This document shows, piece by piece, positions 4,264-60,712 of a stretch of DNA of 64,000 nucleotides. The notes under the pieces were generated by a model, which was given only the letters and a program-made list of their open reading frames with translations, did no database searches and had not been told where the DNA came from. The stretch covers positions 21,216-85,215 of the forward strand of contig CAWDOM010000003.1 of the NCBI GenBank assembly GCA_963803925.1. Direction: 5' to 3'. Numbering within the stretch: position 1 is the first letter of the stretch; every line of letters starts with the position of its first letter. Made by a program: the position numbers and the translations under genes. Origin of the DNA: an uncultured Actinomycetota bacterium. Its GTDB lineage: Bacteria > Actinomycetota > Thermoleophilia > RBG-16-64-13.

Positions 4264-4266
4264 GAC

Positions 4267-5598: not shown

Positions 5599-5605
5599 GG
5601 CGCGC

Positions 5606-34343: not shown

Positions 34344-34381
34344 CGACAAGCGTTGTACTGCACGCAGTATAATACTTGTCG
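34344..34381. promoter_or_regulatory. 38-bp imperfect palindrome containing TATAAT between divergent genes
   Basis: CGACAAGCGTTGTACTGC-AC-GCAGTATAATACTTGTCG; arms match 15/18. Confidence 0.6.
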
Positions 34382-34486
34382 GAGTATACCGCCGCTGTTC
34401 ACCCGACTTCAAGCCCAGATGCGCACGTCGTTTGCAGCGCACGGCCGCCTCCGCTACCCTGGTCGCAGCCACCCAAAGGAGGGGAT

Positions 34487-35839
34487 ATGCGCGCACTCGA
34501 CCGGACCCGGCTTGGACAAGCCCTTCAGCGAGAGCGAGAGGCGTTCATCGCCGCTCGTCCCCGGTCGGCGGCCCTCAGCGCGTCGGCCCGCAAGAACCTG
34601 CTCACCGGCGTGCCGATGGCCTGGATGACCCGCTGGCCCGGCTCGTTTCCCATCTTCTTCTCGGAGGCCGATGGCGCGCGGATCGTCGACGTCGACGGCA
34701 TCGAGTACGTCGACTTCGCCCTCGGCGATACCGGAGCCATGACCGGCCACGCCAGGCCGTTCGTCACCGAGGCCATCCGGCGACAGGCAAGCAGGGGGAT
34801 CACGACCATGCTGCCCTCGGAGGACTCCATCTGGGTGGCGGGGGAGATGGAGCGCCGCTTCAAACTGCCGCTCTGGCAGTTCGCGCTCACGGCCACCGAC
34901 GCCAACCGCTTCGCGCTGCGCATAGCGAGATACGTCACGGGCCGTCCGAAGATCCTCGTCTTCGACTGGTGCTATCACGGCACGGTCGATGAGACGCTCG
35001 CCACGATGGGGGCCGACGGCAGCACCCAGTTGCGCCCCTCGAATATCGGCGCCCAAGTGCACCCAGCGCTGACGACCAAGGTCGTGGAGTTCAACGACCT
35101 CCCCGCGCTCGAGGCCGCGCTCGCTCCCGGCGATGTGGCCTGCGTCCTGGCCGAGCCGGCCCTGACCAATATCGGCATCGTGCTGCCCGACCCGGGGTAC
35201 CACGACGAGTTGCGGCGCATCACCCGCGAGACCGGTACGCTTCTCATCATCGACGAGACGCACACCATCTGCGCCGGCCCAGGCGGGGCGACCACGGCGT
35301 GGGGGCTGCAGCCCGACATGCTCACCATCGGCAAACCTATCGGGGGAGGGGTACCCAGCGCGGCGTACGGCCTGTCAGCGGAACTGGGCGCCCGCATCGA
35401 GGAGTTCTTCAAGAGCGAAGGCGTCGACGTGAGCGGCATCGGCGGCACCCTTGCCGGCAATGCTCTCGCGGCGGCGGCCATGCGCGCCGCCCTCGGCAAC
35501 GCACTCCGTGAGGAGGACTTTGCGACAGCCATTCCTCTAGCCGAGCGGTGGACGGCCGGGGTCGCCGGAGTCATAGCCGAGAACAGCCTGCCGTGGACCG
35601 TACAGCGCTTGGGCTGCCGCGCCGAGTACTGGTTCTGCCAGCCGCCGCGCAACGGCGCCCAGGCGGCCGCCGCGGTCGATGCCGAACTCGAAGCCTGGTT
35701 CCACCTCTACATGCTCAACCGGGGCGTACTCCTCACCCCCTTCCACAACATGGTCCTGCTTTCTTCGAGCCATGCGGCGTCCGATGTCGATCTCCACACA
35801 CGCCTCTTCGCCGCGGCCGCGGACGAGATCCTCGCCTAG
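34487..35839 (+). CDS. Class III PLP aminotransferase (glutamate-1-semialdehyde aminomutase-like family)
   Basis: DVDGIEYVDF.LG, YHG, LAEP, LIIDETHT, TIGKPIGGG, GGTLAGN; SD AAAGGAGG. Confidence 0.9.
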   Translation: MRALDRTRLGQALQREREAFIAARPRSAALSASARKNLLTGVPMAWMTRWPGSFPIFFSEADGARIVDVDGIEYVDFALGDTGAMTGHARPFVTEAIRRQASRGITTMLPSEDSIWVAGEMERRFKLPLWQFALTATDANRFALRIARYVTGRPKILVFDWCYHGTVDETLATMGADGSTQLRPSNIGAQVHPALTTKVVEFNDLPALEAALAPGDVACVLAEPALTNIGIVLPDPGYHDELRRITRETGTLLIIDETHTICAGPGGATTAWGLQPDMLTIGKPIGGGVPSAAYGLSAELGARIEEFFKSEGVDVSGIGGTLAGNALAAAAMRAALGNALREEDFATAIPLAERWTAGVAGVIAENSLPWTVQRLGCRAEYWFCQPPRNGAQAAAAVDAELEAWFHLYMLNRGVLLTPFHNMVLLSSSHAASDVDLHTRLFAAAADEILA

Positions 35840-35866: not shown

Positions 35867-36640
35867 ATGGATCTGACTGGGCATACGGCGGTCGTCACCG
35901 GCGCGGGCAGCGACCGAGGTATCGGCTTCTGCGCCGCGCGGCTTCTCGGGCGGAGGGGCGCCGCGGTGGCAATCGTCTCAACCACGCAGCGCATCGAGGA
36001 GCGGGCCGCCGAACTGCGAGCCGAGGGCATCGACTCGCTCGGCCTCATCGCCGACCTCACCGACGAGCGCCAAGTCGCCACGATGGCCGCCCGTGTGGCC
36101 GAGTGGAGGCCCACCGCGGACATCCTCGTCAACAACGCGGGCATGGTGTCACTCGCGTCCGGGTGGGATGCCGAGAAGCCGTTCGTCGACCTCAGCCTGG
36201 CCGAATGGGACGCCGCCCTCGCCCGCAATCTGCGCACCGCGTTTCTCGCGACACGAGCGTTCTTGCCCGGCATGCAGCGCACGGCATACGGCCGCGTGGT
36301 CAACGTGTCCTCTACGACCGGACCGGTGGTCGCCATGCCGAACCAGACCACCTACGCGACCGCGAAGGCGGCCATGCTCGGCCTTACCCGCTCGCTCGCC
36401 TTGGAGGTCGTGACGCAGGCGATAACCGTCAACGCCGTGGCCCCTGGCTGGATCGCCACCGCGTCGGCGACACCCGCTGAGGCCCGGGCGGCGACGGCCT
36501 CGCCGATCGGGCGGGCGGGCACTCCCGAGGAAGTGGCCGCGCTCGTCGCCTTTCTCGCTTCTCCGGAAGCGTCGTTCATCACCGGGCAATTGATCGTCGT
36601 CGACGGCGGGAATTGCCTCATGGAGGACAAGTCGGCCTGA
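35867..36640 (+). CDS. Short-chain dehydrogenase/reductase (FabG-like)
   Basis: VVTGAG...GIG, LVNNAG, VNVSS, YATAK, VNAVAPGWI, FITGQ.IVVDGG. Confidence 0.93.
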   Translation: MDLTGHTAVVTGAGSDRGIGFCAARLLGRRGAAVAIVSTTQRIEERAAELRAEGIDSLGLIADLTDERQVATMAARVAEWRPTADILVNNAGMVSLASGWDAEKPFVDLSLAEWDAALARNLRTAFLATRAFLPGMQRTAYGRVVNVSSTTGPVVAMPNQTTYATAKAAMLGLTRSLALEVVTQAITVNAVAPGWIATASATPAEARAATASPIGRAGTPEEVAALVAFLASPEASFITGQLIVVDGGNCLMEDKSA

Positions 36641-36738
36641 TTCGTGCCGCCCGGGGGCCGGCCCCCGTCTTCTCGCTCAGCGCCCCACCGGGTGATATCT
36701 TCGTGTAGATGTAGCCCATCGGCAGCCAAGAATAGGGA

Positions 36739-37539
36739 GTGGCGATGAGTACTCAGGAGCCTCGTTCCAAGAGCCCGGCGAATCGAGACGCCGAGGCCCG
36801 CTTCCGTAACCTTCGTTGGTGGAATACCTGTGTCGGCCTGGTCCTCGCGGCGGAGGCGATCGTGATCGCCGTACTCGCCAACGATTTCAAGTTGTCGGTC
36901 ACTGCGACGTACATGCAGGGACCCCCCGGATCGGAGACCAGCCTCACCCGCATCGGCAGCTTTCCACTCGCCTGGGGCGTCTTCGCCTTCATGGCTCTGT
37001 CGGCCGCGGCTCTTCTGATCATGGCTTCGCCCGGGGTGTTCAGTTGGTACAAACGCAATCTGAGCCGCGACCGCAACTACGGACGCTGGATCGAGTACTC
37101 TGTGACGTCGTCGCTGATGATCGTGCTGATCGCCCTGATCTGCGGCATCGGCGACATCGCCGCGATACTCGCGATCTTCGGCGTCAACGCGTCGATGATC
37201 TTCTTCGGACTGCTCATGGAGAAGTACGAGAACCCGGGCAAGCCGAACTGGCTGGCGTTCGTGTTCGGCAGCTTCGCGGGCCTAGTCCCATGGATCGCGG
37301 TCTTCGTCTACCTGGTCAATCCCGGGCTTGACGGCGTACAGCCTCCCGGCTTCGTCTACGCCATCCTCGTGACCTACTTCGTGCTCTTCAACTGCTTTGC
37401 CCTGAACATGGTGCTCCAGTACAAGAAGGTCGGCCGCTGGCGCGACTACCTGGTCGGCGAGAAGACCTACATCGTCCTCAGCCTCACCGCCAAGTCACTG
37501 CTCTCCTGGTTGGTCTTCGCGAACACCCTCATCGACTGA
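36739..37539 (+). CDS. heR: Heliorhodopsin (HeR), atypical
   Basis: LANDF...TY..GPPG loop, RWIEYSVTSSLM (counterion Glu), GVNASMI.FG, PGFVY, YIVLSLTAKS (SxxxK retinal Lys); 7 TM. Confidence 0.93.
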   Translation: MAMSTQEPRSKSPANRDAEARFRNLRWWNTCVGLVLAAEAIVIAVLANDFKLSVTATYMQGPPGSETSLTRIGSFPLAWGVFAFMALSAAALLIMASPGVFSWYKRNLSRDRNYGRWIEYSVTSSLMIVLIALICGIGDIAAILAIFGVNASMIFFGLLMEKYENPGKPNWLAFVFGSFAGLVPWIAVFVYLVNPGLDGVQPPGFVYAILVTYFVLFNCFALNMVLQYKKVGRWRDYLVGEKTYIVLSLTAKSLLSWLVFANTLID

Positions 37540-37698
37540 CGTGCGGCGACAGGGCGGGGCCGGCGCGCGTGCGGCTCCGCTCCCGGTAGCGCTTGCTGAA
37601 CGGCCCGGCCGTGCCTGGAGTCAATCCTCCGGCGTAGCCGGGCCGAAGTCTTGCCGCGACCTCTCAGACCATTTCCGCGCACGCGCCTGCCGCAACGC

Positions 37699-37726
37699 TA
37701 AACCTCAGCGCGCCCGCGGTCGATAT
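37699..37726 (+). promoter_or_regulatory. Putative sigma-28-type promoter
   Basis: TAAA-N16-GTCGATAT ending 7 nt before the GTG at 37734. Confidence 0.6.
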
Positions 37727-37733
37727 TGGTCAT

Positions 37734-38060
37734 GTGAGAAACGAACCAGACAACACGATGCCCAATGTCGCGCCGAACGTCTTCTGCCGCGCCTGTGCCT
37801 CGCCGCTCGTGCAGGCGCGAGACTGGGAGCCCGAGGACGAGGGCATGTGGGGCGTCCGCTTGTGGTGCCCCGACTGTGATTTCGAGCAGGCGGCGGTGCT
37901 CGACAAGACCCAGTTGCTCTACCTCACGCTGGCTGTGGAAGAAGGCTTCGCCTGGGTGCTCGACGCGCTGACGCAGATCAACGCGTCGACCCTCACGCCG
38001 GGCGAGTTCGATCTCGTCAAGCTGGCCCAGACCGACAGAATCAGTCCCGCCACGCGCTGA
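37734..38060 (+). CDS. Small CxxC...CxxC (Zn-ribbon-like) hypothetical protein
   Basis: CRAC.S.LVQ..DW......W.V.L.CPDC. Confidence 0.75.
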   Translation: MRNEPDNTMPNVAPNVFCRACASPLVQARDWEPEDEGMWGVRLWCPDCDFEQAAVLDKTQLLYLTLAVEEGFAWVLDALTQINASTLTPGEFDLVKLAQTDRISPATR

Positions 38061-38111
38061 GCGTGCGTGAGCGGCGCGCCCTGGCGCGAGGAGCCGCCTG
38101 TCGGCAGCCTA

Positions 38112-38714
38112 TTAGGTGGGCCTCCAGCCCAGGATCCCGGCCTCGGCGTCCTTGCGCTTCTCCAGTTGGATCAACGCGTCCTTGTACTTGCCATGACGCA
38201 GTCCGATGACCTCGGCGGCCACTTGCAGGAAGCGCCAGATATCGGTGTCGACCGTGTCGGCCGACGAATCGAGGTAGACGACACTGCCCTTCAGACCGGC
38301 TCCTTCTTGCTGCCTCACAGCGTGGAACACCGTCTTGCTCATGATCATGTCGACCTCGAGCTCCATGCCTTGCAGAGCCAGGGTCTTCACCAGCAGCCCG
38401 CCATCGTCGATTCGAATCGCGCCGGGGGGCGGGGGCTCAGGGGGCGCGGGCGTGGCCCTTGCTACCAGCCCGGGCGCCTCGTCGAATTCAGTCTCGAGGG
38501 TCATCTCAGCCGGGTCAAGCTCCGGCGCCGCGTCGAGATCCACGGGTGGGCGAGGACCCAGGTAGAGCATCACGGGCCCCACGCGCGCGGGGTACACGAA
38601 GGGACTCTCGATCTGCATCCGCTCCCCGGAGGCGAGCCGGCCCTTGAGGTACGGATCTCCCCACAGCAGTGCGAGGAACTGTTCTCTGTTGAGTCGAGTA
38701 ACGTCGTCGGCCAC
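38112..38714 (-). CDS. Hypothetical protein (DUF1828-like possible)
   Basis: IESPFVYP, IRIDDGG; Pro-rich insert; GC3-rich frame. Confidence 0.65.
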   Translation of the reverse strand: MADDVTRLNREQFLALLWGDPYLKGRLASGERMQIESPFVYPARVGPVMLYLGPRPPVDLDAAPELDPAEMTLETEFDEAPGLVARATPAPPEPPPPGAIRIDDGGLLVKTLALQGMELEVDMIMSKTVFHAVRQQEGAGLKGSVVYLDSSADTVDTDIWRFLQVAAEVIGLRHGKYKDALIQLEKRKDAEAGILGWRPT

Positions 38715-46311: not shown

Positions 46312-47433
46312 TCAGAGGAGTGCCGCTAGGAGCAGGCAGACTTCTCCGCGGGTGGCCGGGGCCCAGAAGTCGAAGTTCGGGCCCATGTCTTGGAAGCCGT
46401 CGAGCCAGCCGGCATAGGCCGCCCTGGATGCCCACTGATAGTGCTCGTCGCTGAAGTTGCCGAAGCACGGCTTGTATCCGGCCGGTGGGGCGCCCAGTCC
46501 GGCGGCACGACCGACCATGGTGATCAGTTGTGCGCGGGTGATGTTCTCGTATGGACCGAAGATGTAGGGCGTCTTGCCTACCGTTATGCCCTGCGCCGCG
46601 CATGCGGCTACGTAGCCTCCCGGATAGAGCGGATCCGAGCCGCTCGGAGTACTCGATACATCCATGAACGAACAGGCCGAGATCGGGGAGGGGGTGCGAC
46701 CCAGAGCCAGGATGACCATCTTTGCGAACTGCTGGCGGGTCACCCTGTCGTAGGGGCCGAACGCACCGTTTCCGTAGCCGCTGACTATGTTGCGGCCGGC
46801 GAGCAACCCGATCTCGTCGGCGTACGGCGTATTGGAGCCCACGTCGCTGAAGCCCGAAGAGCTCGGTGTGCTCGTCGACGAAAGCGAATGCGCCGTCGGG
46901 TCGACGAACCCGCCGAAATCAGTCGTCCAGTAGTACTTGTAGATCGAATCGCTCGCGTACACCAGAGAGACCCCGATGACTTTGTACTTGGAATCAACCA
47001 GGTGCTCGTCGTGCGAGGGCGAGTTCTTCCAGGCGCTGAAGACTTCGGCTGCGGTGATCTGTCCGGCCGCGATGTTTTCGCCCTTGTACGTGTTGTAGTC
47101 GTAGCCTGAGACTGCCATGCGATCCCACGGAGTCGCGCCGGCCGCGAACCAGTCCGAGCGCTGAGTGTAGTGGCTGAAGAAGCCATACTTGGCCATGTCG
47201 AGACCGTGTCGATCACTGGCCTCCGATACGCGGTCGGAGACCTTGAGCGCGTTGAGGCCCAATCCGGTGCGGTACTCGTTGATAAGTCTTACGAGAGCGG
47301 TCTCCTCGGCGGTGTAGGTCACAGCCTGAGCCGGAGCGGCGAAGGCCGCGCCTACCAGAACCACCATCGCGACGACGATGGCCAAGGCGAAGGAGACTCG
47401 AGCGATCATTCTCGCCGGTCTATTCATCTTCAT
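46312..47433 (-). CDS. CAP (SCP) domain + SLH domain secreted protein
   Basis: Signal peptide; LINEYR...GL, H..DMA...FFSH, GENIAAG, WKNSPSH, YWTTDFG; SLH FSDV...IVSGYGNGAFGP...VTRQQFAKM. Confidence 0.9.
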   Translation of the reverse strand: MKMNRPARMIARVSFALAIVVAMVVLVGAAFAAPAQAVTYTAEETALVRLINEYRTGLGLNALKVSDRVSEASDRHGLDMAKYGFFSHYTQRSDWFAAGATPWDRMAVSGYDYNTYKGENIAAGQITAAEVFSAWKNSPSHDEHLVDSKYKVIGVSLVYASDSIYKYYWTTDFGGFVDPTAHSLSSTSTPSSSGFSDVGSNTPYADEIGLLAGRNIVSGYGNGAFGPYDRVTRQQFAKMVILALGRTPSPISACSFMDVSSTPSGSDPLYPGGYVAACAAQGITVGKTPYIFGPYENITRAQLITMVGRAAGLGAPPAGYKPCFGNFSDEHYQWASRAAYAGWLDGFQDMGPNFDFWAPATRGEVCLLLAALL

Positions 47434-47473
47434 AGGCCCTTTTCTACCGGACTTGCTACTACTCCTAGGCCTT

Positions 47474-47501
47474 GTATCGACAGTCGGACATGCTGACTTG
47501 A
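47474..47501 (-). promoter_or_regulatory. Putative sigma-28-type promoter
   Basis: Minus strand TCAAG-N15-GTCGATAC, 40 nt upstream of the CAP-SLH ATG. Confidence 0.55.
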
Positions 47502-47573
47502 GCAAATACGACAATGGTTTTGCGCGAGAGTGCAGTCCGGTCGTCGGCTGCTCGCTGCAGCACGGGAGTTGGC

Positions 47574-47605
47574 CCGTGGCGCCCGGCGGAAGCCGGGCGC
47601 CACGG
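47574..47605 (-). terminator. 14-bp perfect hairpin after the protease gene
   Basis: CCGTGGCGCCCGGC-GGAA-GCCGGGCGCCACGG. Confidence 0.65.
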
Positions 47606-47643
47606 TGATCGTGGAATCATGTGCCCTCGCGGCATAGAGGCCG

Positions 47644-50600
47644 CTAGGGCGCGATCAACGTCCCCGTGATGTCGAGGGCGTCAAGGTTGACGTTGTTGCC
47701 GTAGCTCAATACGTTGCGGGTACCGGTGTACTCGATGACCAGTGTATGGACTCCGGAACCCAACCCCGTTCTCGTATACACCGCCTTCTGATACAACGTT
47801 CGCGCTGAGTAGAGGTCCACGTAGGTCACTACACCATCGAGCGTGACCTTCGCGCGGCCCCACGTGTTGCCGACGCTCGCGATGTAGCTCACATCCGACC
47901 CGGTGAAGCGAGCGGTGACCTTGCTGCCCGAGTACTTCGCGTACTTGTACATCAGACCGGAAAGTGACGAACCACTGGAAGTAGTCCATGTTCCGGCATA
48001 CGTGAGGTAAGCGTGGTTCTCCTCATAGCGGACGGTTCCGCCGCTCTCAGCCGCGAATGTCGCGGTGACGCTCTTGTTCGCGTTCATTGTGATAGTAAGC
48101 GGGTTCACAGTGCCGCTCGCACTGCCGCCCCAGCCCATGAAGACGTAGCCGTCGGCCGGCACGGCGGTCAGAAGCACCGTCGCTCCAGACGTGTAGCTCG
48201 GCAGGTCAGGGTTCACGGTGATAGATCCGGTGGAGGCGCCCGAAGTGACCGAAGTGCTGAGCGTGTACGTGGTCGGACTCGTTGATGTGAAAGTCGCTGT
48301 GATGCTCTTATTCGCGTTCATCGTAACGGTGAGCGGGTTGGTCGTGCCGGTGGCGCTGCCGCTCCAGCCCGAGAAGACGTAGCCGACACCAGGAGTCGCT
48401 GTGAGCACGACCGTGGCCCCGGATTCGTAGGCCGGCAAGTTGGGCTCGCGACTCACCGACCCGCTGCCCGACACGTTCGTGGTCAGCGTGAAGGTGGTGA
48501 CCGGCGACGTGAGCGTGCCCACGATGTCGAGAGCGTCGAGGTTGACCGTGTTGCCCCGGCTCAGGCCGCTCCTCGTACCGGTGTGCTCGATGATCAAGGT
48601 ATGCGGACCGTCGGTGAGACCTGAGGCGCTCCAGACCGTCTGCTTGTACTTCGTAACCGAGCTATACAGGTCTACGTACGAAACCGCGCCGTCGAGAGTC
48701 ACTTTGGCGATGCCATAGCTGGTGGTGGTTCTCGCGATGTAGCTCACCGAGGTGCCGGTGAACCTCGCGGTGACCGACGAGCCCAGCGTGTTGGTATACG
48801 CGAAACTATTCCCCGAGTAGCTCGAACTGGTGCTCGTCCGCCACGATCCCGTGTAGGCGAGACTCGAGTTGTTCTGTTCGTATCGGGTCGCGCTGGCACT
48901 GCTCTGCGAGAAGGTGGCCGTGATGGTCTTGTTTGCGTCCATGGTCACGACCAGCGGGTTGGTCGTGCCGGTCGCGCTTCCGCTCCAGCCCGCGAAGCTG
49001 TAGCCGCTGGCCGGAGTGGCCGTGAGAGTCACGGTGCTCCCTGACGCATAGGTACTCTGGTCGGGGTTGCGGGTGACGGTGCCACTCCCGGAGGTCAGCG
49101 TGGTCAGAGTGTAGTTCGTGGGTGTCGAGCCGCCGGAGCCCGTGTAGGCCTTGAGACAGACGTTGACTCCAGTGATGCCATCGCTGGCGAAGGCATTGCT
49201 TATGTCGGTCCACGTGGAGCCGTTCGAACTGATGTAGCTTTGGCCAGTCGTTCCGCCGGCCTGCGGCGAGTAGCTGGCGTCGGGGTACTCGATGGCGATG
49301 GGACTGGTCGTGCCCGTCGTGTAGGTCAGCTTGACGGCAACGACGAACTGCTGCCCACTCGTAATGCTCACGGGAGTGGGCAGGGCCACCGTGTGATAGC
49401 CCATGTAGGGCATGCTGCCGCTCGTGCGCAGAGTCTTGCCGACGAGCGACGAGCCAGTGAAGTATGAACCCGTGTAGACCTCATACGAGACATTGGGGCT
49501 CAGCGTGTAGAAGCCGACCGCTGCCACTGAAGAAGTCGACTGGGCCGTGAAGACGTTGGCGAACCAACCCGTAGGGTTGTTGTACCAGGTGTAGCCGACC
49601 ATGCCCAACGGATCGTATTGGTATATTCCCGAGTAATTGGTCACCGGCTCGGTATCGCTGAATATGGCCATCTCGTCGGTCCGGCCGAACCGGGTGTCGT
49701 AGTACGAGACCCAGAAGTAGCCCGCGTTGCCCCACGATGTTCCCCAGCTGTTCTTGACGAGAAAGGCCCCGTCGGCAGCCGGAACGGTCGCGAAGTTGGT
49801 CCTCGAATAGTCGTCATCCCAGCCGACGATCAGGACCGCGTGGTTGGTGCCCGCCGAGCCGTTGTAGTAGAAGCTGGCGTTCGCGGAGTTGAAATACGAG
49901 GCTGTCGAATCCGGCCAGTGCATGGCCACATAGACGCCGCCGTACTGCATCACGGCATTCTTGACGTTCTCGTTGTCGGTCGCTGAGCCGCGGGCCGGCA
50001 GCCAATTGACTTCTTGGACGTGCTTGTCGGCGCTCAGGCCGGATGGGGTGATCGCGTCTCCGTAGGCGTCGTCGCTTTCGTCTACGGGGCCGGCCCACCG
50101 GGCCAGATACGCCGTGGACATATAGAAGTTGCCGCCTGTGTTGTAGCGGGTGCTCGTGCTCGCGGAGGCCGCCCAGAACCCGCTCTGAAGCGCGAGGTTG
50201 TCCTCGGAGTAGTTCTGGGTCTCGCCGGGCAGCAGGCACGACTCCAGAGAGCCGTACGTGGCGAACGCCCAGCAGGTGCCCAGACTCCCCTGGTTGCGCA
50301 CTGCCGTGACCCGGCCGTAGTCGCGCAGGTCGTAGCTCGCCGGCGCCGCGGTAGTCAAGCCCTTGGGCTCAACCCGCATCCCCCGGGTAAACGAAAGGTC
50401 GACCAGCGACGGCGCGTAACCCAGCCATCGGCCTTCGCTCGTGCGCATGGAGGCCGTGCCCCGGGTGAGCGCCTGCAGAAAGTCGAGGTACGCACTCGAG
50501 GCGGGGGCGAGGGTCGCCGTGGCCTGAGAGGTCGAGGTCGCCGCATTCGCCTGGCCGGCGAGGCCAAGCAAGAGAGCCACAAGCAGCAGCGCTACAAGCG

Positions 50601-50649
50601 CCAGCGCGACCGCCGCCCTCCCCGCATGACGTCTGACTGAGATCTCCAT
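47644..50649 (-). CDS. Secreted papain-like (C1A) cysteine protease with lectin-like domain, 3 InlB B-repeat-like units and 2 CBM-like domains
   Basis: VRNQGSLGTCWAF, NHAVLIVGWDD, VKNSWG, YFWVSYYD, YQYDPLG; 3x G.TV.LTA.P..GY.F.GW.GSA.GT.NPL..TM.ANK..TATF; 2x RYE.N...L.Y.G.W...NLDALDI. Confidence 0.92.
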   Translation of the reverse strand: MEISVRRHAGRAAVALALVALLLVALLLGLAGQANAATSTSQATATLAPASSAYLDFLQALTRGTASMRTSEGRWLGYAPSLVDLSFTRGMRVEPKGLTTAAPASYDLRDYGRVTAVRNQGSLGTCWAFATYGSLESCLLPGETQNYSEDNLALQSGFWAASASTSTRYNTGGNFYMSTAYLARWAGPVDESDDAYGDAITPSGLSADKHVQEVNWLPARGSATDNENVKNAVMQYGGVYVAMHWPDSTASYFNSANASFYYNGSAGTNHAVLIVGWDDDYSRTNFATVPAADGAFLVKNSWGTSWGNAGYFWVSYYDTRFGRTDEMAIFSDTEPVTNYSGIYQYDPLGMVGYTWYNNPTGWFANVFTAQSTSSVAAVGFYTLSPNVSYEVYTGSYFTGSSLVGKTLRTSGSMPYMGYHTVALPTPVSITSGQQFVVAVKLTYTTGTTSPIAIEYPDASYSPQAGGTTGQSYISSNGSTWTDISNAFASDGITGVNVCLKAYTGSGGSTPTNYTLTTLTSGSGTVTRNPDQSTYASGSTVTLTATPASGYSFAGWSGSATGTTNPLVVTMDANKTITATFSQSSASATRYEQNNSSLAYTGSWRTSTSSSYSGNSFAYTNTLGSSVTARFTGTSVSYIARTTTSYGIAKVTLDGAVSYVDLYSSVTKYKQTVWSASGLTDGPHTLIIEHTGTRSGLSRGNTVNLDALDIVGTLTSPVTTFTLTTNVSGSGSVSREPNLPAYESGATVVLTATPGVGYVFSGWSGSATGTTNPLTVTMNANKSITATFTSTSPTTYTLSTSVTSGASTGSITVNPDLPSYTSGATVLLTAVPADGYVFMGWGGSASGTVNPLTITMNANKSVTATFAAESGGTVRYEENHAYLTYAGTWTTSSGSSLSGLMYKYAKYSGSKVTARFTGSDVSYIASVGNTWGRAKVTLDGVVTYVDLYSARTLYQKAVYTRTGLGSGVHTLVIEYTGTRNVLSYGNNVNLDALDITGTLIAP

Positions 50650-50724
50650 GGGCTCTCCTTCTGGTGCTGCGGCTGAAGAGCAGCCACTGTTGTCTTCTTG
50701 GGGCGTCAAGACGCCTCAAGAGTG

Positions 50725-50752
50725 TTATCGGCAAAGATTTACGTTACCTTGC
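50725..50752 (-). promoter_or_regulatory. Putative sigma-28-type promoter
   Basis: Minus strand GCAAG-N15-GCCGATAA upstream of the protease gene. Confidence 0.55.
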
Positions 50753-52265
50753 GCAAAATATTGCACAGAGCGTAGACCATCTTGGCCGCCTGGCCACGGG
50801 TCGCGGTGCTGTAGGGGTCGAACAAGTGTGCCGCCTTGCCCGAGATGATGCCGTTGAAGTATGCGGTCGCCACGGCCGTGCGGCCGTAGGCAGGCACGTC
50901 GGTGAACGGGGCCGAGTAGCCGCTGGGAGGCGCGGGCAGATCGTCACCGCCGGCCCTGACCAGCATCATGGCCAGCTGCAACCGCGTGATCTTCTTCGTC
51001 GGGGCGAACGTGCGATCGCTATAGCCGTTGATGATGCCTAGAGCACAGGCTTCTTCGATGAAGTCGAACGGATACGGATCGCCGTAGTAGCGAACATCGA
51101 CGAACGACGGCGCTGCCGCGTTGTCGACGACTTGGGTATGCTTGTCGAGAGCGAGGACGACCACCTTGGTGAACTGAGCCCTGGTGAGAGCCGAGCCAGG
51201 CCTGAAGAGACCGTCGTCGTAGCCCGAGAGGATTCCTGCGCCGCTCAGCGCCGTGACCGCCTCGTAGAACGGCGAACCGGCCGGAACGTCACGGAACCGC
51301 GTGGCAGGCACCGTCGTGTTCGTGGTGCTCGTGGTGTTCGTCGTGGTTGTCGTGCTGATCGAGGTCGTCGTCGTTGTAGCGGCAGTAGTAGTCGTCGTCG
51401 TCGCACTCGTGGACGTCGTGGTGGTCACCGAAGAGCCAGTCACAAAGACCAGGCACGTGGCCGTGCCCATGTTGCCGGAAGTGTCGTAGGCCCTCACCTC
51501 GAGAGCGCACTCACCGTTAGGCGATGTCGCGCTGTTCCAGACGATCGCATACGGACTCGCCGCGTCGGACGCGACGAAGCCTCCGTTCGCATACAACTCC
51601 ACCCGGTTCATCCCCCGGTTGTCGTTCGCCGACACCGACACCGTCACCGAGCCTCGCGCCTCGGAGCCTGGCGTTGGCTGCAAGATGATGACGTTGGGAG
51701 GAGTCGTGTCGGGTGGCAACGTACTGCCGTTCTCATGGGCAGTCCCGTCGAGGTAGCTGCCGAAATCGGTCGTCCAGTAGGTGCCCATGGACGTTCCGGA
51801 CATATCAACCAGTCCGACGCCGATCACCTTCCACTTGCTGTCGAGCATGTTGAGGTTGTGCGCGTACGAATCCTTCCAGGCCTTGAGCACTGTGGCCGGC
51901 GTGTCGTACCCGGCCGCGATGTTCTCGCCCGTCCACGTGCCCGACGGGTAGCCGCACGCGACCATGCGCTCGCTGGGTTTCGATTGAGCGAGGAACCAGT
52001 CGGATGCCACGGTGTAGTGGGAGAAGAACTCGTACGTGGCCATGTCGTGGCTGTGCTTCTCGGCGGAATCGGACAACACATCCGACACCAGCAGACGATC
52101 GAGTCCGTAAGAGGCGCGATACTCGTTGATGAGGCGCACGATCTCGATCTCGCGGGCGTCGTACGAGACGGCGCTGGCCCGCCCTGGGAAGGCGAAGCAT
52201 GGTCAGCGCGAGCAGCAGGACCAGCCCGAAAAAGGCTGCCCCCCGGCGTACGTTCTTACAAGTCA
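50739..52265 (-). CDS. CAP + Ig-like + Thr-rich linker + SLH secreted protein (frameshift at about 52197 in the signal peptide; start approximate)
   Basis: LINEYR, HSHDMA..FFSH, GENIAAG, YWTTDFG; DTTPP...AYDTSGN; poly-Thr; SLH LTRAQFTK, ITRLQLA, ATRGQAAKM; hydrophobic leader in the adjacent frame. Confidence 0.85.
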
Positions 52266-52285
52266 GCTCAGGTACCTCGGTTCGT

Positions 52286-54715
52286 CTACTCAGCCACCAC
52301 GTTGAACGTAGCGCTCTTGGTCACGTTGTAGCGTGAGTTGGTGTCGGTCACAACGATCCATATACGGTAGGCGCCCCACGTGAGGGTGTCGCCGGCGCTG
52401 TCCTTCGTGAGAGAGGCGTTGCCAGTCCACGAGGTGGCGCTGTTGCCGAGAAGCTCTACAGCATCGTGCAGCGCGAACTCGAGGAAAGTCACGTCGTGCG
52501 GCAGGATGTAGACCTCCTGCTTGACGATATCGGGCGAAGTGGAAAGCACCCAGATGGCGCCGAAGTCGTAGCCGTTGACGCCGGCGTGCGCCTCGTCGGA
52601 GTCGGCAGCGACGAGCGAAGTCACGGGCGGCGGCAGCTCGTAGGCGACATCGTCGATGGTGAACTGCCCCGATTCCGCATAGGCGGTGTGGCCTAGCTCA
52701 TCGCCCACGAGCGGGCCTGCCTGGTCACGCGCCGTGATGCGAATGTGCACGTGCGTCTTGTCGAGGGTGACCTCCGGAGTGGTCCAGTCGAACCGCCCGT
52801 CGTTGGGCGTGCCATCGGCCCCGGGAATACTGACCCACACCGGCGAGACGATCGACCCGTCGAGCGTGTACTCGATCTTCACAGTGGCCGGCGGCGTCAC
52901 GTCGCTGAGAGTCCACGTGATGGCGACCAGCTGGTTCTCCTGCAGCACCTGGCCCGCGGTCGGGGTCAAGATGGTCACTACCGGCGCGCTCCAGTCGACG
53001 ACGATCTCCTGCGTCACCCCCGCCGCGTATGAGCCGCCGTTCATGAGCTCGGTCGCGTTCCCCATGAGATCGGTGGCCTTCGCGGCGAGAATGTAGCGAC
53101 CCTCCGGCAGAGTGAGGGTGCCCCAGCTCGCGGCGTAGTCGGCTGTGGCGTCGGTCGAGATCAGGGTGAAACCGGCCCAGGTGGTCGGCTTGGTCTGCGA
53201 CCACGGCGCGTAGTAGAACTGCACCGAGGCGACACCGCTCGCCTGCCCTGTCGTCGACGGATCGACGGCGGTGGCCGTGAACGTCGGCGTGGGGTCTTCG
53301 GTGTAGAAGATGCCGGTGGCGACGGGTGACGTAATGGCCACCGCCGGACCGGTGGTGTCGACCGTGGCCTCGACAACGGCGGAGATGCGCTGATTGCCCG
53401 CATTGTCGGTGGCGGTCACCCTGAACTGATACTGGCCGTCTGTCAGGCCCGAAGAAAGGGTGCCGCTGGTAGGCCAGACCGCCGCGTAGGTGTTGGTGCC
53501 GGTATCGGGCGCCGTATCGATGGAGACGGTCTGCCAGGTGGGTGTCGTCTGCTTCAGCGCCACCTGGAACTCCACCTGCTTCACACCCGTACGCTCGTCG
53601 ATGGCGGTCGCTGTGAAGTCGGGCTTGGTGCCGATGGCTCCGGTCGCCGGCTTCGTCACGGTCGCGATCGGGCCCACGGTGTCGAGGATGAACGTCACCG
53701 GAGCCGAGGCCGCCGAGACGAGTCCGTTCTCATTCTTCACCTTGGCCGTGAGAGTGTGCGTGCCGTCGGTCAGAGCCGTAGTGAGGTCAGTGTAGAACTT
53801 GCCGGCAGCGTTGCTGGTGTCCTCTATCAGCTTCACACCCGCGTCGTAGATGGCGATCGGACGACCGGCCAGCGTATCGCCCGTGACCTGAGGCGTGGAA
53901 TCGTTGCCGATGTACTGCTTTGACGTGCTGTTGTAGATGACCGTCTTGCTCTCGCCCGGAGTCGCCGCGACCGCCAGGTTGGTCGGCGCGCCTGGCGGAG
54001 TCTTGATGGCATCGGCTTCCGCTTTCACGCGCAGAATCATCGCCGCCGCCTGTGCGCGGATGAGCGTGGAAGCCGGATTGATCTTGCTGTTGGAGCCTTG
54101 AACGATCTTTCGGTAGATAAGGTAGGCGGTGGCCGGCTTGTGGGTGGCGGCCACCTTACCGGCGTCACTGAACGCGTTCAGGTAGAAGGTGCCCTCGGCC
54201 GCGTACCACAGGTCTAACGTACCGTAGTCGCTGACGTCGCCATGGATGGAACTGGTGACATCGATCTCCAGTTTCGACAGGTAGCGGCCCAGGATACTGT
54301 TAGCCTGCTGCCGCGTGATGTTCTGGGTGGGTTTGAAGTAGAGACCGCTGCTCGAGGGGATACCCCCGATCAATTCGGCCGCGTATGCGCCCTCCACGTA
54401 GTCGTAGACCGCATTGCTCGGTATGACATCTTTGAACGTGGCTTGGGCCGGATGGAGCGTGGCGATGTCCAATCCGCTTACCGACATCTTGGCGAACTGA
54501 CCACGGGTCACCGCCAATGTCGGACGAAACGTGCCGTCGGGAAAGCCGTCGGCCACGGTGGCCACGTCGGCCTCGCTGACTCCATAATTCGTGACCCACC
54601 AGGAAGCGGAGGCGTCGGACCATGGGGGCGAGGCGGCTGCGATGCCCGCGAGCGCTACCACAAGGAGGCCGGACACCACAACAAGGGCCAGAAACATCTT
54701 GGCGCTGTGCTTCAT
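52286..54715 (-). CDS. SLH-domain surface protein with tandem Ig-like domains
   Basis: Signal peptide; GFPDGTFRP...VTRGQFAKM, ITRQQA, LIRAQAAAMILR; repeated DT.GP...IT.P / ATD.AGN units. Confidence 0.88.
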   Translation of the reverse strand: MKHSAKMFLALVVVSGLLVVALAGIAAASPPWSDASASWWVTNYGVSEADVATVADGFPDGTFRPTLAVTRGQFAKMSVSGLDIATLHPAQATFKDVIPSNAVYDYVEGAYAAELIGGIPSSSGLYFKPTQNITRQQANSILGRYLSKLEIDVTSSIHGDVSDYGTLDLWYAAEGTFYLNAFSDAGKVAATHKPATAYLIYRKIVQGSNSKINPASTLIRAQAAAMILRVKAEADAIKTPPGAPTNLAVAATPGESKTVIYNSTSKQYIGNDSTPQVTGDTLAGRPIAIYDAGVKLIEDTSNAAGKFYTDLTTALTDGTHTLTAKVKNENGLVSAASAPVTFILDTVGPIATVTKPATGAIGTKPDFTATAIDERTGVKQVEFQVALKQTTPTWQTVSIDTAPDTGTNTYAAVWPTSGTLSSGLTDGQYQFRVTATDNAGNQRISAVVEATVDTTGPAVAITSPVATGIFYTEDPTPTFTATAVDPSTTGQASGVASVQFYYAPWSQTKPTTWAGFTLISTDATADYAASWGTLTLPEGRYILAAKATDLMGNATELMNGGSYAAGVTQEIVVDWSAPVVTILTPTAGQVLQENQLVAITWTLSDVTPPATVKIEYTLDGSIVSPVWVSIPGADGTPNDGRFDWTTPEVTLDKTHVHIRITARDQAGPLVGDELGHTAYAESGQFTIDDVAYELPPPVTSLVAADSDEAHAGVNGYDFGAIWVLSTSPDIVKQEVYILPHDVTFLEFALHDAVELLGNSATSWTGNASLTKDSAGDTLTWGAYRIWIVVTDTNSRYNVTKSATFNVVAE

Positions 54716-54771
54716 GGGGACCAATACTACCAGGACTCTGCGAAATCCTTCAATCTGAGGCCTCCAAACCC

Positions 54772-54805
54772 AAAGAAAAAGGAGGCCCGCCGAAGCGGGC
54801 CTCCT
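54772..54805 (-). terminator. Intrinsic terminator of the S-layer gene
   Basis: Minus strand AGGAGGCCCGC-TTCG-GCGGGCCTCCT followed by TTTTCTTT. Confidence 0.88.
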
Positions 54806-54853
54806 CGCAGATTCAGCTGGCGCCGAACCTTACTTGCGGTCTGAGGTCATCGA

Positions 54854-57800
54854 CTAGAAGACCTCGACCATGTCCCAAACCCAGTTCGGGACCTCGTCGG
54901 TGTTGCTGCTGTTGCTGGCGTTGACGAAGAAGTACTCGCCATCGATCCAGGTGTGCAGGTTGGTGCTGATGCTCATGTCGTTCGGAGCCACGAAGACACC
55001 GCTACCAAGAGCGCCCGCAACGTTGCCACCCGGGTTGAGGTACGGCTTCAGGGTCTTGCCATCCCATCCAGCGTCGTCAGCGTCGGTGCCGAAGACGTAG
55101 ACCTTCTGCTCGCCGTTGTAGGCGGCAACGAGATCCCAGTCGCCGGCTTCGTCGACGTAGATCCACTGGATGTACGCGTAGTTAGACATCTTGCCTTCGG
55201 CGGAAGCGAAGATCTTCTCAACGCCCCAATCGCCTTCGACCAGATCGTCATAGTACACGGCGAACGATACCTGGCCATTGCCGTCGGTGGTCTGGGGAGC
55301 CAGATCCTCGAACAGCATGGTCAGGGTGCCCTCCATCTGGGCGCCGAAGACACCGTACTTGTCGACGTCAGTCAGGCTGACCTCGACGTTGGGCATCGGA
55401 CGACCGAACTGGTCTTTGACCGTGGCTACGAGAGTCTGGTCTTCAACACCAGCGATCGCGTAGTCGGTGGCCGGAGCCAGTGTGATGGTGGAAACAACAG
55501 GCACCTGCCAGATCTTGTGGACCTGGGTGCTCCAGAGGTACGCACCTTCCTGCACCAGTCCGTCGGCCGGCGCGTAGACCATCACGCGGAGGATCGACTT
55601 GTAGTGAGTAGCCGGGAGGTACGGAGCCCTCAGCGAGCTGGATGTCGATGTTGCTACCGGTGAGCAGGTTCGGAATGATTTCGAGGGCAATGGGCTCCTG
55701 CCTGCCACTCGCGATGTAGCCATCGAGCGTCCAAGCCTTAGCACCATCGGTGGCGAGACCAACGAGACCCGGCTCAGCGGTGGGATCACCGAAGAAGCCG
55801 TCGACGTAGCCGTCGAAGCCGTCGAACATCAGATCGAAGCTGGGCCACGGCGACGGCCACGTGTAGCCGTACCAGGCCTGATCAGCCGGAGCGTAGTAGC
55901 CACCGAAGCCCATGCCGGCAACGCGGGTCCACCAAGTCGGGACACCGGGCTGGCCAGCGTCGGTGTCTTTCTCGCTACCGAGCCACTGGTTGAAGAAGAA
56001 CGCCTCGGTCCGGTTGTCGCCCACGATGTAGGCGTACGGGTCGGACAGCGGATGAGGCTCATCGGCGTCCGGACGCGCCGTTCTGATCGTAGTAGCCGGC
56101 AAGCGGGCTGAAGTTCTCAGCGAACGGATTGTCGGAACTATTCGCGGGCAGCCAGTTCTCGTCGTCGAGGTCAACAAGATACGCGAACGGGATGCGGGTA
56201 TTGAGGGCGTTCTGGCTTCCGGCCAGCCACTCGTCGATGTTCTCGAGCAAGTAGACGACCTCATAGTCGGGCAGGTCGTTGCCGTAGGCATCTTTCACAT
56301 GAACTTCGACATGAGCGGAGTTCAGCTCGAGATCCCAACCGCCGTCACCGTCGGACACGATGTCCCAACCCGGGTTGGTGGCGTCGGCAAGCTTGCCGGC
56401 CTTGTTGGTGGCGACCTTGATACCGTCGATCCAGATCTCAATAGTGACGTCGGTGGCGGCACCAACAGCACCGGCGATCCAGTTCTTCTTCGCGTAAGCG
56501 GTGAGAAGCTCAGGACCGTCGTGCGGGTTACCAGCCCAGTCGACGACTGCCTTGATGGTCTCCGGGCCCTTGACGGTGGAGGTGACGGTGACACTGGCTT
56601 TACCAGCGGCATCGGTCACGGCCGTGGCGGGCGAGAAGGAACCAACAGAGGCGGTGTCAGTACCGGCGAAGTTGTTGAGAACCGAGAGGGTCCACGGCAT
56701 GTCGAGGCCCCACGCGTTCAGGTTACTGAAGTTAGCACCGAACTCGTTAGCCTTGCTGAAGGCGATCGTCTTGCCTTCGAGAGGCAGATAGATGCCGGGC
56801 AGGTTATCGGCGGTGGCGAGACCCGGGATTGGGCCCCAGTCGAACAGTTCTTTGAACGCGTTGTCGTTGTAGTCGTACATGGTGTACGCACCCTCATAAG
56901 AGAGAGTGAGCCACTGGCCGGCTACCTTGACCTTCGCGGTACCGCGCTCATCGTAGCCATTGTAGTTGTTGGCTTCGATGATGCCGTTGAGGTCTTCGTC
57001 GAACGGCAGATCGCCGGGCATCCACTCGTACCACAGCTTGATCTTGTTATCCCAGTACCAGTTGAAGCCATCGCCCGACGGGTACATGAGGATACCGCCG
57101 AAGTATGCGGCGTCTTTCCAGTTGATGATGCCGTCATACGACGAACCGGTGTAGTCGGAGTCGATGAACGAAGTCTGTCCATCGGGCTCGTCGGTGGTCG
57201 GGTCGTACTCGAGCTTCAGGCCGTAGACATACAGGTTGAACGTATGCGAGGTGTTGACGTCGTTCTCAGCAACAGCCTCGTTGTTCTCGACCCAGAAGTA
57301 GTCCTCAAAGTCGTAGTCCCAGACCCACTCGCCGACGGTGGTGATGTCGTCGAACGTAGCGATGTCGACGTCGAACCACTGGACTTCAGCCGTGTAAGTC
57401 AGGAAGGTGCCTTCCGCGCCGCCGGTGCCCTTGTCGCGCACCTTGGCATGGATGATCTGCTCGCCCGCGTCATAGGACTTGACGAACAGGGTGGCCTTAC
57501 CGTGCGAGTTGGTTACATCGAAGTCCTTGTTGTTGGCGGCAACGTCCTTGTCGGAGGTGTCGCCAGCGTCATCGGTCTGGAAGAAGCCGACGCCCTGCAT
57601 GAACCACTCGACGTACTTGCCGGCAACCGGGTTGCCGTACACGTCGGTGAGGGTGACAGTGAGGATAAGTTCTTCACCGATGTTCGGATCGGAGTAGGCC
57701 GGGGTGATCGGGCCTGCCGCGCCACCGATGGTGTGCGAGATCCAGGTCTTAACGAAGAGCGCGGCGAGAGCCGGCTGATCGTCCCAGTCGTAGTCGTGCC

Positions 57801-59317
57801 ACCACTCGTCATACTCGAAGGTGTCATGGTTGAAGAGCTGCTCGGGATACGGGTTCTGCGCATAGTCGGCAACTGCTTCGACCAAGGTCTTACCGACGAC
57901 CTCGGAGTACGACCTTGATGGTGCTGAGACCATTGGCGTCGGTCTTGCCCACAGCGGTCTTGGCGGGCGTGATAGCCGTGCCGTCGACAGCGATGATGTT
58001 ACCGACCGAGGTGATGGCCTCATTGGTCAGGAGGGTCTTCGGGTTGTCGAGGACATTGTAGATAGCCCACTCGACATCGATGCCGGCCATGGTGCGCGGC
58101 TTATAACCCTGAGCCAGCATAGCAAGCTCGTCGCCATACGTCATCGGGTCGTCGTACATGTCGCGACCGTCGTTGACATTGATGTTGGTCGGGTCGAACG
58201 GAGCGGTGCTAATCGCGTTGTACCAGTCGCTGAGGCTGGTGGAACGCGGGCCCGGGCCGAAGACGACCACGCGGACACCCCACAGGTGCTCCACACCGGC
58301 GTTGTTCTGGGCGCTGTTGCCGAGAGTGCTATAGATCTCGTCGAGAGCAAGCCAGTAACGGGTGGTGTAGACGGTGCCCACGCCGGCAACGGTGGCGCTG
58401 AGGCGCTGCGTGCCGGGCTCGAGCGAGAGCATATTGACGGTGACCTGGCCGTAGCTGTTGGTGACAGCCGCCTGCGGCGAGATGTTACCGACGTAGAAGC
58501 TCGTGGCCATCATCGTGTCGATGTCGACCAGAACGCCCTTGGCCGGATGGCCGGCGGCGTCGGTGACTTCGAGCGTGACCGAGTAGGTCTGGCCAATCAG
58601 GCCTTCAGTCTTGTCAGCGCTGACGAGCTCGAGCTTCGCCGGGATGTACAGCTGCGGCGGAACGAGAGCCTGGGCGCGGATCAAGAACGCGGCGGCCTGA
58701 ATACGGGTCAGGTTGGCGAGCGGATTGAAGTTGCCATAATCGTCGCCGGCCGTCAGACCCATGTCGAACGCGAAAGCGACTTCGGCCTTGAGGTCAGCGG
58801 AGATGCTGGCTGCATCGCCAAAGTGCTGCAGCATGGCGGTGAGCTCATCGGCGGTGTACATGGTGGCGAGGTCATAGCCCTGCGCCTTGGCCACGTAACG
58901 AGCGACGATGGCGACAGCCTGCTGACGCGTGATGTTCGCTTTCGGGGTGAAGGTGGTAGCCGTTGTGCCGTTTACAGCACCAGCGGCTTTAGCGCCTTCG
59001 ATGTAAGGATAGTAGAAGCTACCCTTGGGAACGTCCGTGAAGGACGCGGTGGCCGGATCCGCCAACGGGATATTGAAGGCCGCGACAGCCATCTTGGTGA
59101 ACTGCTCGCGAGTGATGGACTGGTACGGTTTCCAGAGTCCACCCTGGTAGCCTTCGGAAATCCCAGCGACCTGGTTGTCGGTGATGCCGTACTTGGCGGT
59201 CACCGTGTCGGGGAGGTCGGTCCACGTCTGGTCCGCGAGGGCCACAGTGGAGATTCCCAACACCAGGACGATGGCGAGGACGGCCAGAATCGCGACCTTA
59301 AGGGTGCGTTTCTGCAT
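54854..59317 (-). CDS. Probable major S-layer protein (about 1490 aa; N-terminal SLH triad), split by three frameshifts (about 57910, 56075, 55612)
   Basis: MQKRTLKVAILAVLAIVLVLGISTVALA signal; ITREQFTKM, ITRQQAV, LTRIQAAAFLIR; Ig/Big-like units; four overlapping ORFs join seamlessly; frequent GGT/GCT/GTT codons as in highly expressed genes; long leader and strong terminator. Confidence 0.8.
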
Positions 59318-59350
59318 TAGACCACTCCTCTTCTTGTTTTCATTCATAGC

Positions 59351-59420
59351 AAATGGTTCTTGCCATTTCCTACTTGTGCTGCGGTAGTAAGTAGGAAGTA
59401 AGAACTTGTCACCTCCTTTC
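59351..59420 (-). promoter_or_regulatory. Structured 5' leader with orphan strong SD (STAB-SD-like)
   Basis: GAAAGGAGGTGA at 59420-59409 with no start codon at normal spacing; stem TTCCTACTT/AAGTAGGAA with outer GTTCTT/AAGAAC. Confidence 0.55.
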
Positions 59421-59589
59421 GTCTTTGGGCTCACAGCCGCGCCTACCAACGCGGAGTGGCAAACTCTGAGGTCTGGGGCGGCAAGAGAGCCCGTCGACCG
59501 TTTCAGACACATTGAAAAGCGCAGACCGGCTGCGCGGATAATCGAAGCCATAGTCATATCGTCTGACCTGAACGTCATTGTTTCCTCCG

Positions 59590-60660: not shown

Positions 60661-60712
60661 TCTGACCGTATATTGCCGGCGGCCCGGAAAAGTTACGGTC
60701 GAATGCCGATGT

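Follow-up and report, generated by a model that had tools for sequence, protein, structure and literature searches.

The heliorhodopsin gene in this window, the 64,000-nucleotide stretch of DNA that was analysed, raises the question of what a heliorhodopsin becomes when both of its conserved histidines are lost. In the early literature, His23 and His80 (numbering of HeR 48C12) appeared near-universal: Kovalev et al. (PMC7049168) described them as highly conserved across 479 heliorhodopsins and as 'almost completely conserved' in the subfamily, and held both to be important for proton transfer. The window protein departs from this subfamily feature, with Leu36 and Leu92 at the two positions. 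An original prediction, made from the sequence, proposed a variant with a rewired photocycle, possibly with transport activity or with a glutamate of TM1 as proton acceptor, or else a light-independent role. From the comparisons described here, we consider it likely that the protein is an intact, retinal-binding, 48C12-like heliorhodopsin of a Leu/Leu type, with a slow, non-pumping photocycle and with Glu39 acting as a stand-in for glutamine.

The open reading frame at 36739..37539 on the forward strand was confirmed as the sole one in this place with strong coding bias (GC3 = 0.86), and its 266-aa translation holds no histidine anywhere, as had been reported. The start had been placed at GTG 36739. 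Because a GGGAG box stands 5 nt before ATG 36745, and because a database protein that is 100% identical to the window heliorhodopsin (P0002) is 264 aa long, this ATG, two codons further on, is probably the true start. Residue numbers throughout refer to the 266-aa version from GTG 36739, and a start at ATG 36745 shifts all of them by −2. The Pfam family PF18761 (Heliorhodopsin) matched residues 25-264 over profile positions 1-242 of 242 with an E-value of 1.4e-91 (306.6 bits; cutoff 26.7), the NCBIfam heliorhodopsin equivalog NF038020 scored 302.5 bits (cutoff 100), and the 48C12 structures (6su3) were matched by phmmer at E 2e-67. Bit scores from phmmer of 230.5 against 48C12 and 172.7 against TaHeR put the protein nearer to 48C12 and, on this sequence measure, in group A (subfamily 1, the 48C12 group). 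An AF2 model, with a mean pLDDT of only 66.8, contains seven helices and an AB-loop hairpin (strands 51-57 and 69-76); heliorhodopsin structures fill the first ten places among its Foldseek matches (TM 0.61-0.67, E down to 9e-15), with type-1 rhodopsins at E 0.02 or worse. The first 28 residues before TM1 hold six Arg/Lys and three Asp/Glu, a charge balance that is consistent with the cytoplasmic N-terminus of the inverted heliorhodopsin topology and is an indirect sign of it.

Table 1 Features of the heliorhodopsin locus, in window coordinates and with residue numbers of the 266-aa version
Feature	Position	Strand	Evidence and remarks
FabG-like short-chain dehydrogenase, 99 bp upstream	35867..36640	+	Pfam adh_short_C2, 4.5e-58; best NCBIfam FabG subfamily 203 bits, below the cutoff of 222
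GGGAG ribosome-binding box	36735..36739	+	Direct sequence reading; 5 nt 5′ of ATG 36745; overlaps GTG 36739
Heliorhodopsin CDS	36745..37539	+	Likely start ATG 36745 (264 aa); PF18761, NF038020, 48C12 match, P0002
Leu36 (CTC), TM1, equivalent to His23 of 48C12	36844..36846	+	6su3 alignment, codon check; Leu in 121/121 close homologues and 66/81 species-level rows
Glu39 (GAG), TM1, equivalent to Gln26 of 48C12	36853..36855	+	6su3 alignment, codon check; minority state in the clade
Leu92 (CTT), TM2, equivalent to His80 of 48C12	37012..37014	+	6su3 alignment, codon check; Leu in 121/121 close homologues and 66/81 species-level rows
R116-W-I-E119-Y-S121 motif, TM3, with Schiff-base counterion Glu119 (37093-37095)	37084..37101	+	R116 and E119 invariant in 81/81 rows
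TM7 segment: S248, Lys252 (37492-37494), S253, W257, L258 (equivalent to Gln247 of 48C12)	37480..37512	+	S248, K252 and W257 invariant in 81/81 rows

Alignment of the window protein to 6su3 by phmmer paired His23 with Leu36, Gln26 with Glu39, His80 with Leu92 and Trp246-Gln247 with Trp257-Leu258, in agreement with the manual alignment behind the original prediction, and it also paired K241 with K252 and E107 with E119. The RWxEYS counterion motif and the SxxxK retinal lysine were correctly recognized as well, and read R116-W117-I118-E119-Y120-S121 and S248-L-T-A-K252. Relatives were compared in two sets. The close homologues were the 120 best 90%-identity clusters of 6273 scored matches, 65-100% identical to the query, and make 121 rows with the query; for the closest of them, P0003-P0009, the identity is 77-89%. 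The species-level scan took one genome per GTDB species and found at least 579 confirmed relatives, of which the best 80 loci were analysed, making 81 rows with the window. In all 81 of these rows N29, S88, Y104, N113, R116, E119, E161, E241, S248, K252 and W257 are invariant, and since these include the residues that line the cavity and hold the retinal, the protein appears to be under selection as a retinal pigment. That histidine is missing altogether is no more informative than the loss of the conserved pair, because 12 of 48 full-length His/His representatives contain exactly two histidines and 74 of the 121 close homologues (query included) contain none. Histidine counts from the locus-derived proteins were set aside, since many of their N-termini are over-extended by a start placed at the earliest possible codon behind the preceding stop.

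Leucine was present at both histidine positions in every one of the 120 best clusters (121/121 with the query), and the best 80 species-level loci comprised 65 Leu/Leu, 15 His/His and no mixed cases, so that Leu92 was always coupled with Leu36 in both sets. Within the best 80, identity to the window protein is lowest, 53-60%, for the His/His loci. Hosts of the Leu/Leu loci among these 80 are Thermoleophilia, Gaiellales and other Actinomycetota together with Dehalococcoidia and other Chloroflexota; the nearest species-level relative among the matches listed is the heliorhodopsin of a Gaiellales MAG at 78% identity, so that, judged by its heliorhodopsin relatives, the source is probably a Thermoleophilia/Gaiellales-like actinobacterium. 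Clade members from Dehalococcoidia share no more than ~60-65% identity with the window protein. A broader sample was taken from 50%-identity representatives, using the best 150 of 3029 clusters plus the query (151 rows). Here, 104 rows cover both positions, with 72 His/His and nine Leu/Leu, the latter being the query and mostly fragments, and 14 rows of this set retain His80 with Tyr, Leu or Phe at the His23 position.

Two trees were built from these proteins. For a FastTree analysis of 144 rows, the 81 species-level rows (window included) were joined by 63 of the 150 representatives, 87 having been dropped as fragments or for want of the lysine. For an IQ-TREE analysis of 130 rows, the same 81 rows were combined with 49 of 119 close homologues (all Glu39 rows and every fourth of the remainder), and five trait columns were removed. 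The Leu/Leu proteins formed one side of a single branch in the first tree (support 100) and again in the second (SH-aLRT 100), with one change in each. Because the same division, at a support of 100, was recovered in both trees, the double His-to-Leu replacement looks like a single event that was inherited by a large clade standing beside His/His relatives.

One protein with this feature has been studied in the laboratory. Chazan et al. (bioRxiv 10.1101/2021.02.16.431466) described HeR HULAa30F3, a group A heliorhodopsin from a Dehalococcoidia fosmid of Lake Hula in which Leu stands in place of H25 and H81. Its absorption maximum of 562 nm was then the most red-shifted known for a natural heliorhodopsin, and the protein shows no proton pumping, little accumulation of M and an O of long lifetime; in the authors' view the two replaced histidines account for the low M and long O, and they make a comparison with the H23F/H82F mutant of TaHeR, for which they cite a decreased M from Shihoya et al. 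(2019). The same Leu/Leu feature is cited in a later preprint (10.1101/2024.05.16.594530). In our data, the same two residue numbers, 25 and 81, carry the Leu pair in 27 of the Leu/Leu proteins, all 250-258 aa long, and many clade members are from Dehalococcoidia. A DegV gene adjoins HULAa30F3 (Chazan et al., bioRxiv 10.1101/2021.02.16.431466), and in our set a DegV-like gene was present no further than 5 kb from the heliorhodopsin at 9 of 66 Leu/Leu loci and at none of the 15 His/His loci; at the Dehalococcoidales loci L020 and L047 it directly follows the heliorhodopsin (~32 bp). Indirect support for placing HULAa30F3 in the Leu/Leu clade thus comes from its residue numbers, host, group and neighbouring gene, and not from an alignment. 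Given the size of this clade and the measurements on HULAa30F3, heliorhodopsins that lack these histidines are neither rare nor unstudied, which goes against the original prediction, and the window protein is, by its sequence, a further member of a known Leu/Leu variant. The rewired photocycle is a more mixed case: an altered photocycle is plausible in view of the low M and long O of HULAa30F3, but it would be that of a variant already characterized.

By analogy with HULAa30F3, the window protein is expected to bind all-trans retinal, to absorb green-yellow light and to transport no protons, with a slow photocycle in which M barely accumulates and a long-lived O dominates. With His80 and His23 gone, the Schiff-base proton would be left only Glu119 and cavity waters. 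For 48C12, a relay His80-His23-water-Gln26-Trp246 was proposed by Tsujimura et al. (PMC9726877) as central to activation. A relay of this type would be inoperable in the window protein, so that any output would have to pass by way of the conserved network on the cytoplasmic side (N29, Y104, E241, R116 and E161) or by the conformation of the O state. The commonest form within the clade, Q39/A253/Q258, which accounts for 49 of the 66 Leu/Leu species rows, would have the relay dismantled further, since its Ser242 position is Ala. Glu39 of the window protein is pictured as protonated and bonded to Ser253 and Trp257, a contact taken from the description of 48C12 by Kovalev et al. (PMC7049168). The most likely output would be a light-dependent switch acting on a putative partner protein.

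The genes around the heliorhodopsin offer little that is conserved. Upstream on the same strand are genes for a class-III aminotransferase and a FabG-like short-chain dehydrogenase (SDR), and downstream is a gene for a 108-aa protein with two Cys pairs, followed further on by DUF1015, another aminotransferase and YmdB. When 46 window ORFs were compared to Pfam, no carotenoid or blh family was matched, in line with the original statement that the window holds no genes for retinal synthesis. Since blh seldom occurs close to heliorhodopsin genes or in genomes that have one (Chazan et al., bioRxiv 10.1101/2021.02.16.431466), its absence from the window is uninformative. When the 1572 ORFs that lie up to 5 kb from the heliorhodopsin at the 81 loci were clustered, no conserved partner emerged among the window's neighbours, a loose SDR similarity aside, and the commonest neighbour overall, a NUDIX hydrolase, was present at only 12 of 66 Leu/Leu loci. 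A tblastn search with nine window neighbours against the 80 loci matched the aminotransferase once (L006, 33% identity, 147 bp upstream), the SDR six times at non-adjacent sites and an acetolactate decarboxylase once; three small neighbour proteins that belong to no family gave no match at E 0.01. A promoter and terminator scan of 36400-38200 returned no promoter-like sites and two terminator-like sites, both within coding sequence, and is for this reason uninformative. Published partners of heliorhodopsins include glutamine synthetase (PMC9529153), photolyase (PMC9769723) and an ABC transporter (PMC11109279), and none of the three is encoded near the window heliorhodopsin.

This neighbourhood bears on a hypothesis of Chazan et al. 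that prokaryotic heliorhodopsins serve, under the control of light, in the handling of membrane lipids or fatty acids and not in signalling, a task which the window protein might perform with the reductase encoded upstream. The adh_short_C2 family, to which this same-strand SDR belongs, was reported near heliorhodopsins of several groups, and DegV, a fatty-acid-binding protein, was singled out as a characteristic heliorhodopsin neighbour (bioRxiv 10.1101/2021.02.16.431466), in agreement with the DegV-like genes counted above at Leu/Leu and not at His/His loci. However, DegV is absent from the 46 window ORFs scanned, and the SDR is not a constant neighbour, similar genes being found at 6 of 80 loci at distances of 0.7-3.9 kb and mostly on the opposite strand. 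SDRs are also very common genes, adh_short_C2 was found near proton-pump rhodopsins too (bioRxiv 10.1101/2021.02.16.431466), and the literature searched describes no heliorhodopsin with enzymatic activity. We therefore regard a lipid-related role as unlikely for this protein.

Glu39 was the residue on which the idea of a new proton acceptor was built, and its distribution was followed through the same sets. It is present in 27 of 121 close homologues and in 6 of 81 species-level rows, all of them among the 66 that are Leu/Leu. S253 and L258 accompany it in 25 of the 27 close homologues, so that the E39/S253/L258 combination accounts for 25/121; three of the 66 Leu/Leu species rows have this combination and three more have other E39 variants. 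In the IQ-TREE analysis the window protein belongs to a 30-row subclade (support 96), and 25 of these rows are E39/S253/L258. A natural Glu at the Gln26 position is not mentioned in the literature searched, and the E39/S253/L258 subtype, undescribed there, is the remaining point of novelty in the window protein.

Glu39 occurred only together with Leu36, in 6 of 68 rows compared to 0 of 76 rows with other residues at this position (Fisher p = 0.0098, a test that ignores kinship), and all five other Glu-bearing 50%-identity representatives among the best 150 clusters also have Leu36. The residue changed about nine times on the IQ-TREE tree, and at least four of these changes are forced by well-supported branches. 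This tie to a Leu36 background may point to a role of Glu39 that is linked to the loss of the histidine. An independent-pairs test of the association of E39 with S253 or with a residue other than Gln at 258 gave median p values of 0.5 and 1, with few informative pairs. Because Gln and Glu alternate at position 39 between near-identical rows (L008 and P0027, L023 and L037), Glu39 is most likely a protonated mimic of Gln.

It is conceivable, but improbable, that the E39/S253/L258 subtype, about one fifth of the close relatives, is a functionally distinct photoreceptor in which Glu39 has taken over the accepting or relaying of protons after the loss of His23. If this were so, Glu39, one helical turn further along TM1 and held by Ser253, could restore an M state, or a new path could link the deprotonation of the Schiff base with the extracellular surface, and the repeated origin of Glu39 on a Leu36 background would represent compensation and not drift. 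Lower still do we rate a rewired proton path, in which Glu39 becomes the Schiff-base acceptor or part of a conducting path and gives rise to a distinct photocycle or to proton transport. The restriction of Glu39 to Leu36 proteins, its repeated appearance, the company of Ser253, which directly follows the retinal Lys, and the silence of the searched literature on such a Glu would all fit this path. Set against it are the minority standing of Glu39 and its exchange with Gln in near-identical proteins, as expected of a neutral, protonated side chain, which together also count against the TM1 glutamate as proton acceptor. In addition, the Gln26 cluster of 48C12 was located by Kovalev et al. (PMC7049168) at the lipid-facing surface of the protein in its extracellular half, and not in the Schiff-base cavity.

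Transport, the further activity suggested for this protein, is likewise unlikely. Chazan et al. tested ten prokaryotic heliorhodopsins, a Leu/Leu one included, and none pumped protons (bioRxiv 10.1101/2021.02.16.431466). The hallmark of proton transport in V2HeR3 is given by Hososhima et al. 2022 (PMC9448325) as E191 and W195. These positions correspond to I199 and F203 of TaHeR (with an offset of 6 in the PDB chain numbering, checked on E108) and, through the TaHeR alignment, to Y213 and F217 of the window protein, which thus does not carry the hallmark. That the window protein is a degenerate or light-independent scaffold with its photoreceptor function lost can be largely dismissed: two highly conserved proton-transfer residues (Kovalev et al., PMC7049168) are indeed missing and no retinal biosynthesis gene was found in the window, but the retinal Lys252, the counterion Glu119, Ser248 and other cavity residues are invariant in all 81 rows across two phyla, the reading frame is intact and strongly biased in its codons, the natural Leu/Leu protein HULAa30F3 binds retinal and photocycles, and blh is usually absent from the vicinity and the genomes of heliorhodopsins in any case (bioRxiv 10.1101/2021.02.16.431466).

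The significance of the window heliorhodopsin is modest and lies mainly in the clade to which it belongs. In at least 65 species-level genomes of two phyla, the other functional residues have been kept while both histidines, and usually Ser242 too, have been dropped. The clade is therefore a natural control, indicating that heliorhodopsin function there needs no histidine relay or that its output differs. This point was made before for one protein by Chazan et al. (bioRxiv 10.1101/2021.02.16.431466), and what is added here is the size of the clade, its apparent single origin, its taxonomic spread and the Q/E subtypes at the Gln26 position.

Among characterized heliorhodopsins, 48C12 (PDB 6su3, 6su4 and 6uh3) shares 47-48% identity with the window protein over the aligned length and has the same fold, and the counterion Glu, the retinal Lys and the equivalents of S76, Y92, N101, R104, E149, E230 and S237 are all kept. 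The window protein differs from it by H23L, H80L, Q26E, Q247L, Q213M and S111T, by which the relay proposed for 48C12 is largely replaced. The TaHeR H23F/H82F mutant is similar in that both cavity histidines have given way to hydrophobic residues, but it is an engineered archaeal group-B protein with Phe in place of Leu, and TaHeR is ~37% identical to the window protein. V2HeR3 has in common with the window protein the heliorhodopsin family, the counterion Glu and the equivalent of E215 (E241), whereas its E205 position is Gln227 in the window protein, as in the non-transporting 48C12. The closest parallel is HULAa30F3, here set beside the window protein by its published description. Both are group A proteins with Leu at the two histidine positions and the same 56-residue spacing (25/81 and 36/92), and many Dehalococcoidia proteins with L25/L81, and with nearby DegV-like genes, occur in the clade of the window protein. 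They differ in that HULAa30F3 has a Dehalococcoidia host, whereas the window protein is probably actinomycetotal and has no DegV neighbour; a further difference may lie in the minority E39/S253/L258 combination of the window protein. By analogy, the measured properties of HULAa30F3 provide the best available prediction for the window protein.

In the 81 nearest rows, made up of the window heliorhodopsin and the best 80 of at least 579 related loci (L001-L080), the residues at the positions of His23 (TM1) and His80 (TM2) of the structurally solved heliorhodopsin 48C12 were strictly coupled. Position 253, corresponding to Ser242 of 48C12, which forms a water bridge to His23, was Ala in 50 of the 66 rows with Leu at both positions (Leu/Leu), while Ser was kept in all 15 of the His/His neighbour rows. 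The entire polar chain seems to have been lost jointly in the predominant form of this Leu/Leu clade. Across 50%-identity cluster representatives (P0122-P0271, the best 150 of 3029), the TM1 His varied alone far more often than the TM2 His; with the query included, Tyr/His, Leu/His, and Phe/His pairs accounted for 14 of the 104 rows covering both positions, and only 4 rows combined His23 with a non-His residue at position 80.

One Leu/Leu sequence, L013 (contig CAWAUC010000026.1), is titled 'uncultured delta proteobacterium' and nested among Actinomycetota sequences in the tree. Since heliorhodopsins have been reported as limited to monoderms (PMC8612252), L013 may represent a mislabelled bin or a transfer.

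The 108-aa open-reading frame downstream of the window heliorhodopsin contains two zinc-ribbon-like Cys-x-x-Cys pairs, with no family match in Pfam or NCBIfam and no tblastn match in the best 80 of at least 579 related heliorhodopsin loci. Some archaeal heliorhodopsins are fused to zinc-ribbon domains (Bulzu et al., PMC8612252). Elsewhere in the window lies a series of large secreted or cell-surface proteins carrying S-layer homology (SLH) domains and bacterial Ig-like repeats, two of them CAP-domain/SLH proteins and one a papain-family peptidase. Consecutive genes for a MoxR-type AAA ATPase, a DUF58 protein, and a transglutaminase-like TgpA protein, a common three-gene set, were also present.

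Locations of window features
Feature	Position	Strand	Remarks
MoxR-type AAA ATPase, DUF58, and TgpA genes	3205-7849	+	
Aminotransferase	34376-35839		
108-aa open-reading frame	37734-38060	+	195 bp 3′ of heliorhodopsin, same strand
Secreted/cell-surface series	46312-63657	-	
Papain-family peptidase	47644-50709	-	1021 aa; lectin-like and InlB-type repeats

A class-III aminotransferase gene was found by tblastn ~147 bp upstream of the L006 heliorhodopsin, the sole such case among the best 80 of at least 579 related loci; its product shares 33% identity with the window aminotransferase, and this single adjacency is probably coincidence. Neighbourhood clustering of the 81 loci placed a NUDIX-domain gene 3′ of heliorhodopsin, at a median distance of 128 bp and on the same strand, in 12 of the 66 Leu/Leu loci (L015, L017, L018, L026, L027, L031, L033, L034, L038, L041, L055, and L059); none of the 15 His/His loci showed this arrangement. 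All 12 are from Actinomycetota, and six have a MarR regulator directly upstream. The NUDIX adjacency could reflect lineage synteny or a local operon.

A DegV-like gene, assigned by a Pfam scan of the cluster representative, was located within 5 kb of heliorhodopsin in nine of 66 Leu/Leu loci (L002, L014, L020, L022, L024, L037, L047, L057, and L061), one of the nine being a Dak2-DegV fusion; in L020 and L047, both Dehalococcoidales, the gene is directly 3′ of heliorhodopsin. These observations agree with the DegV neighbour reported for the characterised Leu/Leu heliorhodopsin HULAa30F3 (Chazan et al., bioRxiv 10.1101/2021.02.16.431466).
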